The notes beneath the pieces were generated by a model. It saw only the letters and a program-made list of their open reading frames with translations. It was not told where the DNA came from and ran no database searches. A DNA stretch of 24,000 nt. It comes from Scytonema sp. RU_4_4 (GTDB lineage: Bacteria; Cyanobacteriota; Cyanobacteriia; Cyanobacteriales; Nostocaceae). A program made the position numbers and the translations under genes. Each line of letters opens with the position of its first letter. Position 1 is the stretch's first letter. Positions 10,895 through 13,013 of the stretch are shown here, piece by piece. The stretch is taken from contig JAAUSC010000024.1 in assembly GCA_012031965.1 (NCBI GenBank), positions 1,532 to 25,531 on the forward strand, read 5' to 3'.

Positions 10895-11007
10895 AACAGT
10901 GCCTAGTATTGCGTTTTCTGAGGACACAAGCCGCTAAATCTCAGTGAAAATTTTTACCTGAAGCGTTAAATTCTAGAACAGATTTCATCTAAACCTCCAG
11001 GAGACCC

Positions 11008-11034
11008 CCACCAAAACTGTACTCAGTTTGGTGG
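11008..11034 (-). repeat. Right-end subterminal imperfect hairpin of the IscB element
   Basis: CCACCAAAACTG-TACT-CAGTTTGGTGG: an 11-bp stem with one bulged A and a 4-nt TACT loop. Same design as the hairpin at 12703-12731. Confidence 0.55.
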
Positions 11035-11130
11035 CGGGAGGATGTCCGGGTTAATTGTGAAACGTCCCTTAAATGATTTTGTGCGTTAGCACAAACAATG
11101 AGAGGGACAGTTGAGCAATTAACAAATCTT

Positions 11131-12414
11131 CTATTGTGCATACGAGTAACCATCTTTTGCGTGAATGCGTTTACAAAACTTGTGCGATATTCCTTGAACT
11201 AATCCGTTTTTAGCAGAAATATTGAAACTACCTGACGAACGGATAGCCACTTTCCCAATATAATTACCAACCTTTTTACCAGTGGTGACGACTGCTTTTA
11301 CGATGTCACCAGTTTGAAAATTAAAGTGTATTTTTTCTCTTGGTACGTGTCGATGTGGGAAACCGAATTTATCTGTGCGACATGATTGCCTAGCTCCGTG
11401 TCCGTTAGCTGTAATTAACAATGGTTTGGCTCCTTTAATAATCAGTTTGGGTGTTGATTTCCCAACACAAGCCGCATCTAACCAGTGAGTCTTTTCTAAT
11501 TTTTGTTGACTTCTGTTGAACTTTGTTAGACCTCCTGAACCCGTTTCTACAGGCAATCCTGTCTCTTTTAAAATTCTAAATAACGCCCACCGAGTTGTGT
11601 TCACAGCGGCTGCATCAGCTAATGGTCTTTTAGCTTGTGCCAAAATTTTTGATAATTTAGCTGGGTCTTTTTTGAGAAACTCTTTGATATCTTTTGTCCC
11701 TTTTTTGGTGTTACATTTATCGCAACTTAAGGTGAGATTTGTAATAGAATTACTACCTCCCTTCGCTCGCGGGTGAATGTGTTCTACCTGAAAAGGAACG
11801 TCTTTAACGCCACAATAAGCACATTGCCTACCCCACTTTTCAAGTAAATATTCCCGCGTTTCGTAACCTGCTAAAGTACCTTGCTGATATTCCTCCCCTT
11901 TGATATCTGGATTACGCATTAACTGCATATCAAAACGGACTAATTCCTGACTAATAGCCTTAATTGGTGCAAATCGGCATAACTTATTAACCCAGGTTTC
12001 AATATTCTCGACACGGCTTTGTAAGCTCGGTGCTAACCATCCTTTTGGACGTGTTCTGTTTAAAAATCTTGGCGCTCTATAACGAGTTTTTCTAGCGCGT
12101 CTACCACGTCTTAATTGTCGTCTAGATGTTAAAGCTTCTCTAATAGCAAAGCCGCGATGTTTTAATTCTGCTGCAAATACGACTTCGCCAGTAGTCTCGT
12201 TGATTAATGCAATTCCTGTGAATTTTGCGCCTGGGTCTATTTTTAATCGCAGTGATGACACTGGTGAATCTGGTCTTGATTCTTTCAAAATAATTGTGAA
12301 CGGGAAGCGGCGATAAACTGCTGCTTTTTTGTTCCTTAATAACTGTCTAGCTTGTGCTGAATGAATTGGTAAGAGTGGTATGAAGTCTGTATCTAAAACG
12401 AATACTTTGCACAT
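11131..12414 (-). CDS. iscB: IscB-type RNA-guided nuclease (Cas9 ancestor family): PLMP-like N-terminus, split RuvC, bridge helix, HNH
   Basis: FIPLLPIH is PLMP-like. RuvC-I is LKIDPGAKFTGIAL (D60). The Arg-rich helix is RRQLRRGRRARKTRYRAPRF. RuvC-II is ISQELVRFD (E157). HNH is CAYCG...VEHIHPRAKGGSNSITNLTLSCDKCN (C198/C201/C231/C234, H212, N226/N235). RuvC-III is HWLDAACVG (H310/D313). 427 aa. A strong AAGGAGG Shine-Dalgarno sequence lies 6 nt before the ATG. Confidence 0.9.
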   Translation of the reverse strand: MCKVFVLDTDFIPLLPIHSAQARQLLRNKKAAVYRRFPFTIILKESRPDSPVSSLRLKIDPGAKFTGIALINETTGEVVFAAELKHRGFAIREALTSRRQLRRGRRARKTRYRAPRFLNRTRPKGWLAPSLQSRVENIETWVNKLCRFAPIKAISQELVRFDMQLMRNPDIKGEEYQQGTLAGYETREYLLEKWGRQCAYCGVKDVPFQVEHIHPRAKGGSNSITNLTLSCDKCNTKKGTKDIKEFLKKDPAKLSKILAQAKRPLADAAAVNTTRWALFRILKETGLPVETGSGGLTKFNRSQQKLEKTHWLDAACVGKSTPKLIIKGAKPLLITANGHGARQSCRTDKFGFPHRHVPREKIHFNFQTGDIVKAVVTTGKKVGNYIGKVAIRSSGSFNISAKNGLVQGISHKFCKRIHAKDGYSYAQ

Positions 12415-12745
12415 AAGTGCCTCCTTTCGGGTAATGTTAGCCTGGACAATGATTTAAAGGCTTTTTACGCTAACAACACTGACTCAAACCCAATGATTCT
12501 GTTTAATTGTTAACCTCAGGAGCCACTGCGTTGCCGGAGAGAAGTGCCTTGCGCGGGTTAAGCGCGTTGTGGCAACTTCGGAGGTTCCCCCGGTTGTAGC
12601 AAGTGGCGTAGCTACAAACTGGCTGCGTATTTGTAGGTGAGATGACCTAAAAATCGTAGTGAATTAACACTTAGTCGGGTAAACTCTAGGCTTTAAAAGC
12701 CCCCACTGTATTAGGTACTCCTAATCAGTGGTGGGTAGTTTACTA
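12415..12745 (-). ncRNA. Candidate omega RNA (HEARO-type guide RNA scaffold) of IscB; 5' end approximate
   Basis: About 330 nt upstream of iscB with no ORF. It is locally G+C-rich and densely self-complementary. Hairpins: 12703-12731, then TTGTAGC (12594-12600) / GCTACAA (12611-12617), then GAAGTGCC (12541-12548) / GGCAACTTC (12571-12579) enclosing GCGC-N7-GCGC. The position matches the known IscB locus layout. Confidence 0.6.
12703..12731 (-). repeat. Left-end subterminal imperfect hairpin of the IscB element
   Basis: CCACTGTATTAGG-TACT-CCTAATCAGTGG: a 12-bp stem with one bulged T and a TACT loop. Confidence 0.55.
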
Positions 12746-13013
12746 TTTTACACATTGACATATTCAAAGATTTTGACATATTGTTAACAAGTTCGCGTTA
12801 ATGAGATAACCTTAACAAAAGTTTGAGTAACCCTAACTTGCGTAAGCAAGCTCAACTTCACTCTGGTTTCAGACAAGCTCAAATCCGATCAGGGCATGAA
12901 AGCCCCTTCAACTAAACTTCAATAATGTTTCAGGGTTTTGCCTCTACCAATTTGGAGTACGAAGGCTCACCATTGTGAGATTCAACCAATATTGAACAGG
13001 AGAGAAGAGGCAA

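Follow-up and report, generated by a model that had tools for sequence, protein, structure and literature searches.

Here we describe a mobile element from the cyanobacterium Scytonema sp. RU_4_4, found at positions 10989–12743 (1,755 bp) of the window, the 24,000-nucleotide stretch of genomic DNA that was analysed. It is very probably a non-autonomous member of the IS200/IS605 family that carries iscB and an omegaRNA and has no tnpA, and two hairpins would be the subterminal imperfect palindromes of its left end (LE) and right end (RE). The result is a cleanly delimited IscB element from a Nostoc-like cyanobacterium, for which the ends, the target motif, candidate DNA guides and a predicted omegaRNA guide have been mapped, and for which the boundaries are backed by empty sites in sister species. 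The host assembly (G000; 96.6% complete, 400 contigs) was compared with seven congeners (G001–G007), and 40 relatives were searched; contig numbers preceded by C refer to the host assembly unless another genome is named. Read along the + strand, the order is (T)TCAT, boundary, LE, GAGA, left hairpin, iscB (antisense), omegaRNA (antisense), AAAG, right hairpin, TAGT, (T)TTAC, boundary. The main parts are as follows.

10989–11052, + strand: LE of the element, kept in six IscB elements from five genomes (alignment A3); the element is absent from this locus in the congeners.
11005–11038, + strand: LE subterminal imperfect palindrome, with loop TACT at 11020–11023, one unpaired A within 11013–11016 and a bulged C at 11035; core 11008–11034.
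11131–12414, − strand: iscB, 427 amino acids, antisense to the transposed strand (RRXRR 2.6e-71, HNH 1.9e-12).
12700–12735, + strand: RE subterminal imperfect palindrome, with loop TACT at 12716–12719 and bulged T at 12709 and at 12732; core 12703–12731; its minus strand is the first omegaRNA hairpin.

Boundaries and empty sites

The boundaries, 10989 and 12743, lie 16 nt outside the left hairpin and 8 nt outside the right hairpin, respectively. The element begins CTAAAC and finishes GTTTAC, and these ends are not inverted repeats. Both positions come from other copies together with empty sites, and the boundaries of the other copies also include the hairpins, as the original prediction of TnpA recognition structures entails. 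On the left, two further loci of the host genome (a copy of the IscB element on C297 and, on C264, a sequence similar to a left end) resemble the window from exactly TCAT (10985–10988) onwards and have unrelated upstream flanks. On the right, conservation ends at the tail GGGT-GTT-AC, at position 12743 (alignment A4), the same position as the 5′ end of the match to the Rfam family HEARO. Of 80 further IscB loci, 33 have this tail where it is expected. The two sister left ends (C297:16430–16590 and C264:7590–7700) have, straight after the left hairpin, an extra G+C-rich segment of ~160 nt with hairpin-forming runs of G and C, which is not in the window copy.

In the search of the 40 relatives, congeners were seen to have the nitroreductase flank and the right flank but no element, and the element was found at this locus in none of the seven congeners. 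Five of them (G001, G002, G003, G006 and G007) have an empty site. In G001, G002, G003 and G006, a stretch of 35 nt runs from gaaca to attc, which is exactly the length of window positions 10976–10988 joined to 12744–12765. Because the empty sites of these four congeners are as long as the joined flanks, insertion caused no target duplication; and because the empty sites lack the whole unit, the hairpins and iscB were gained together, as a single 1,755-bp unit. Among the genomes searched, the element occurs at this locus only in the Scytonema sp. RU_4_4 lineage. Two congeners differ at the locus. In G005, its flanks are ~700 nt apart. G004, the closest congener (C111 of that genome, L090 ~1490–1510), is without the element and also without ~35 nt of the flank on the left and 8 nt of that on the right. 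Its junction lies between two TTTTAC repeats (window 10952–10957 and 12746–12751) that resemble the right-end motif, and could reflect slippage or aberrant excision.

Structure and conservation of the end hairpins

The original prediction rested on two hairpins, at 11008–11034 and 12703–12731, and both were found with exactly the sequences quoted for them. They share one design and one orientation on the + strand, the stem being CCAC...GTGG, the loop TACT and the 5′ arm interrupted by a single unpaired base, and they bracket iscB on the minus strand. Their naming as left and right on the + strand also agrees with the TnpA convention, given that iscB and the omegaRNA are antisense and that the omegaRNA adjoins the right end. 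Both stems run past these cores, through a 3′-arm bulge (C11035 on the left, T12732 on the right), into three further C–G pairs that form a CCC/GGG foot. Folded as single-stranded DNA, the left hairpin reaches −12.3 kcal/mol (z = −4.2) and the right one −12.6 kcal/mol (z = −5.6), and none of 200 shuffled sequences folds as well.

In the host genome, the strict pattern CCAC..GTACTC..GTGG has 15 matches, compared with 3 for a reversed control. We aligned 18 hairpins from the host and related genomes: IscB elements contributed hairpins of either end, a tnpA–tnpB element contributed those of its two ends, and the rest came from TnpB elements and solitary copies. Compensatory changes were seen in 9 of 13 pairs; the closing G–C pair is invariant, the unpaired column is kept, and the loop is TACT in 16 of the 18. 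The position of the hairpins relative to the element ends is fixed in 20 to 30 independent IscB loci. The apex differs between the two ends. On the left it is well conserved, with TACT in five of the six aligned elements and a match to the strict left-end pattern in ~19 of the 80 further IscB loci. On the right it is variable (TATT in G019, GAA in G021, large inserts in C297 and G024). The identical TACT loop noted at both ends is therefore true of the window but not general among its relatives, where the right-end apex varies. To judge by the aligned sequences, the constant part is the foot, CCC-N-CAC ... GTG-N-GGG, and matching loops are common and not required.

Another end type is seen in ten HEARO mini elements of ~480–560 nt that have no iscB (alignment A1). 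Their two end hairpins match one another but have TTTA in the loop (CTTTAG with the closing pair) instead of TACT, and the elements again end at TCAT. This second subfamily serves as an independent check on the hairpin being the conserved unit. Several such iscB-less elements have a G+C-rich insert of ~50 nt at the same position.

Mini elements of alignment A1 (omegaRNA scaffold and left end), all in G000: C369, C155, C321, C276, C177, C330, C144, C206, C250, C311.

Two further arrangements were observed in the host genome. The right-end hairpin of a TnpB element at C55:6577–6609 and that at C354:3172–3205 (L070, L082) lie in the same context, with the loop inverted (AGTA versus TACT) and the unpaired base on the opposite arm; from the two sequences, this looks like an inversion of the hairpin loop. 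At C312:25376–25408 (L131:177–209), a unit of ~60 nt is made up of TTAG, the outer part of a left end, a single hairpin and the TAGTTCAC tail of a right end, and may be a one-hairpin relic of recombination between the left and right hairpins of an element of the tnpA–tnpB type.

It could be argued that the hairpins are a generic dispersed palindrome, similar to repetitive extragenic palindromic (REP) sequences or miniature inverted-repeat transposable elements (MITEs), that flanks iscB by chance. About 20 hairpins of this design are spread across the genome, and some of them are solitary (C238:27429, C354:3172, C312:25376). However, the solitary copies keep flanking end sequences (the TAGTTCAC tail, the TTAG left end) and look like element relics, the empty sites show hairpins and iscB arriving as one unit, and hairpin placement relative to the ends is constant across the independent IscB loci. 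We regard this explanation as highly improbable, the least probable of those weighed here. The original prediction would have been in difficulty had the hairpins occurred widely without association with such elements; the other genomic copies lie instead at the ends of IscB or TnpB elements or are short relics of such ends, and are not randomly placed. The solitary C238 hairpin was also considered as the end of a tnpA element 2 kb away and was rejected, as an unrelated FG-GAP gene lies between them.

Candidate guides and cleavage motifs, and the omegaRNA

A conserved 4–5-nt motif 5′ of the left end, to be sought by aligning copies and empty sites, had been anticipated, and TCAT (TTCAT in the window) was found abutting the left end. 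The six aligned IscB elements each show a variable flank and then TCAT, the conserved left end, GAGA and the hairpin. TCAT together with the left-end motif recurs in 22 of the 80 further IscB loci, which gives 28 related IscB elements in total. The motifs and candidate guides of the window element are listed here.

10985–10988, + strand: transposon-adjacent motif TCAT (TTCAT from 10984), the last flank bases before LE.
11001–11004, + strand: candidate LE DNA guide GAGA, the 4 nt 5′ of the hairpin foot, read from the sequence via the IS608 rule.
12696–12699, + strand: candidate RE DNA guide AAAG, the 4 nt 5′ of the hairpin foot, the same as the IS608 left guide.
12740–12743, + strand: transposon-encoded cleavage motif TTAC (TTTAC from 12739), the last bases of the element.

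The reference for these assignments is IS608 of Helicobacter pylori (Barabas, Guynet, He, Chandler, Dyda and co-workers; PMC3201880, PMC5934647). In IS608, the motif TTAC stands 19 nt from the left hairpin on its 5′ side and the motif TCAA stands 10 nt from the right hairpin on its 3′ side, and the 4-nt guides, AAAG and GAAT, adjoin the 5′ side of the respective foot. The first guide base pairs with the second motif base, and the second guide base with the first motif base. We infer an additional pairing between guide base 4 and motif base 4, which fits both published IS608 guide/motif pairs. Applied to the window, the rule predicts TC-T from GAGA and TT-C from AAAG, and the motifs seen are TCAT and TTAC. 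It also holds for four other combinations:

Guide GAAG with motif TCAC: right end of the G005 element; C183; C219; C340.
Guide CAAG with motif TGAC: right ends of G019, G021, C177 and C289.
Guide GAAT with motif TCAA: C146, C287 and C97.
Guide GAAA with motif TCAT: left ends of the mini elements.

For guides of TTAG-type left ends, the rule accommodates G005 on condition that the foot is set at the second C, and it fits neither C254 nor G024. The natural covariation of DNA guides with cleavage motifs agrees with the IS608 rule. The window element resembles IS608 in several respects: its subterminal palindromes are imperfect, with one strand having an unpaired base; each hairpin foot is preceded on its 5′ side by a 4-nt candidate guide; and insertion is 3′ of a tetranucleotide with no duplication. 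Its right-end pair, AAAG with TTAC, is the left-end pair of IS608, and one end type of the host genome, GAAT with TCAA, is the IS608 right-end pair. The spacings are 16 nt and 8 nt in the window element versus 19 nt and 10 nt in IS608. Unlike IS608, which encodes tnpA and tnpB in sense, the window element has iscB as its cargo, in antisense.

Upstream of iscB and co-oriented with it lies a full-length HEARO match, with 16 nt between the 3′ end of the match and the iscB start codon. The features of this region are the following.

12431–12743, − strand: omegaRNA scaffold (Rfam HEARO, RF02033), 102.9 bits against a cut-off of 83, full length (model positions 1–211), with its 5′ end at the right end of the element.
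12520–12609, no strand assigned: G+C-rich dispersed repeat of 90 nt, a secondary insertion in an apical loop of the omegaRNA, not ancestral.
12744–12759, − strand: predicted omegaRNA guide segment, formed by flank DNA that adjoins the HEARO scaffold on its 5′ side and is complementary to the empty site beside TCAT; its 16-nt length is assumed from published IscB systems.

As in HEARO RF02033, the match stands directly upstream of iscB, and its first internal hairpin is the right hairpin of the window (12700–12735). RNA folding gives an outer helix, P1, around this hairpin and the next. Compared with the family consensus, the first hairpin is longer (19 versus 6 inserted positions) and a later loop has 106 positions versus 17. 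Since the right hairpin is part of both the HEARO model and the RNA fold, it is read in two forms, + strand DNA and RNA made from the minus strand. The target-adjacent motif of IscB is predicted to be TCAT read on the other strand, ATGA(A). The 90-nt repeat is absent from the sister copy on C297; it has a 99% copy in G005, many copies of 85–94% in relatives and partial copies in the host genome, and it may be a small mobile palindromic element.

This double reading bears on an alternative in which TnpA plays no part and the hairpins act only as RNA, the right one as omegaRNA structure and the left one by stabilising or terminating the iscB transcript at its 3′ end. The right hairpin does belong to the HEARO model and folds as RNA, and, on the coding strand, the left one follows the iscB stop at a distance of ~95 nt. 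Yet the left hairpin has no following run of U and is not terminator-like. The same hairpin type stands at both ends of a tnpA–tnpB element, where the right-end RNA is on the other strand; the complementarity of guides and motifs at both ends fits a DNA mechanism; and the boundaries keep a fixed short distance outside the hairpins. We consider an RNA-only role very unlikely. Both hairpins were also scored as terminators, and neither scores terminator-like on either strand.

The 80 IscB relatives examined (66–89% identity) are nearly all from cyanobacteria, mostly heterocystous Nostocales (Nostoc, Scytonema, Anabaena, Calothrix, Fischerella and others). At E ≤ 0.001, HEARO matches the host genome 22 times, and 16 of these matches exceed the cut-off; the genome also has 11 IscB matches and 4 Y1 tnpA genes. 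In Anabaena azotica SJ-1 (G021; L084, L150–L153) there are at least five IscB elements that score alike against the window (~80% identity), and the sole intact tnpA of that genome is divergent, with no hairpins of the window type.

Candidate transposases and proposed mobilisation in trans

From these features we infer how the element would move. The transposed top strand would be the + strand of the window, and the hairpins would be the structures bound on single-stranded DNA by a dimer of the Y1 (HUH) transposase TnpA. GAGA would pair with TCAT just outside the left end, and AAAG with TTAC, the last bases of the right end. TnpA would then cut after TCAT and after TTAC, releasing a single-stranded circle; the donor would be resealed as TCAT followed by the right flank, and the circle would insert 3′ of another TCAT with no duplication. 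The right hairpin, transcribed antisense, would become the first hairpin of the omegaRNA. With the flank beside the right end as its omegaRNA guide, IscB would cut the resealed empty site, at the target-adjacent motif ATGA(A), and thereby favour re-copying of the element. As there is no tnpA inside the element, the transposase would have to be supplied in trans.

The best candidate type of transposase comes from a tnpA–tnpB element in the congener G005 (tnpA at L102:1468–1878). That element has the order left end, tnpA (antisense), tnpB, right end, with GTACTC hairpins at both ends that are close to the left hairpin of the window, and its right end, GGG-TAGTTCAC, is close to GGG-TAGTTTAC of the window. 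The same left end as in the G005 element adjoins two tnpA copies in G024. Pieces of the G005-type element without tnpA occur in the host genome, at C277 (with TnpB) and at C183. The tnpA-bearing master copy that the original prediction called for thus has a counterpart in a congener, with this hairpin type at both ends, but none was found in the host assembly. A hairpin-foot match near a G024 tnpA (L104) was discarded as chance, as it lies inside a gene. From the sequences of these elements, mobilisation in trans is plausible.

The known system closest in organisation is that of the Geobacillus stearothermophilus IscB elements of the IS200/IS605 family, which have HEARO at the right end, the target motif TTCAT abutting the left end and the right-end motif TTCAC (Meers et al. 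2023, bioRxiv 10.1101/2023.03.14.532601). Like this ISGst family, the window element is non-autonomous, has its HEARO/omegaRNA upstream of iscB and bounded by the right end, and has its target motif at the left end (TTCAT in Geobacillus, (T)TCAT here). It also shares the DNA guides beside subterminal palindromes and the presence of gene-less, palindrome-associated mini elements in the same genome. The right-end motif is TTTAC here, and TTGAC and TTCAC in relatives of the window element. The ISGst family is mobilised by a tnpA encoded elsewhere, whereas no compatible tnpA was found in the present assembly. Further differences are the cyanobacterial host, with the closest relatives in Nostocales, the GTACTC hairpin apex with a bulged CCC/GGG foot and the 90-nt omegaRNA insertion.

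Several observations weigh against a mobile element with TnpA-bound hairpins. When the four tnpA loci of the host assembly (all divergently paired tnpA–tnpB) were searched for similar hairpins, none was found, and the closest host TnpA is 60% identical to that of G005 and has other end hairpins. The guide rule does not hold for two kinds of right end, those of the mini elements, where GAAG goes with TGAC, and that of the C297 copy, where TACG goes with TTAC. The second omegaRNA hairpin occupies the region 5′ of the right hairpin and may place a constraint on that region. Loops are often unmatched, as only 11 of the 80 further loci have GTACTC in the right hairpin, compared with 33 that have the right-end tail, and 7 have the strict GTACTC patterns at both ends. 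Finally, the 90-nt foreign insertion may impair the omegaRNA.

Some of these points would also fit a copy that is now an immobile fossil, in which the hairpins are TnpA sites by descent and in which, with no compatible TnpA and an omegaRNA interrupted by the 90-nt repeat, neither excision nor homing takes place today. The dissimilar hairpins of all four host tnpA genes, the best being 60% identical to the candidate type, and the insertion within the omegaRNA both favour this, and the tnpA-less derivatives of the G005 type at C277 and C183 suggest that the transposase was lost. On the other hand, the iscB frame is open over its full length, and the two ends are intact, each with a matching guide/motif pair. 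The insertion lies in an apical loop that is variable in the Rfam model, leaves the match above the cut-off and is lineage-specific, so that it is not ancient; and the assembly is fragmented, with repeated elements often unassembled. We regard a fossil copy as possible but less likely than not.

A broader proposal, on which we are more doubtful still, concerns the family as a whole. Nostocales IscB elements, TnpB elements and gene-less mini elements might share interchangeable hairpin modules, and would stay mobilisable by matching the end hairpins of whichever tnpA-bearing element is present, or by gaining them through recombination at the hairpin. If this were true, traces of such exchange would be seen in the variability of the right-end apex and the conservation of the left-end one, in the copy with the inverted loop and in the relic with one hairpin. 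The right hairpin would be under selection twice over, in DNA for its recognition by TnpA and in RNA for its part as a stem of the omegaRNA, and the evolution of transposase specificity would be tied to the structure of the guide RNA.

The element itself is of a well-understood kind, and its description is a correct but ordinary finding that leaves the understanding of such elements unchanged. Its mapped ends, motifs and guides can serve annotation, and the testing of a cyanobacterial IscB or TnpA system.

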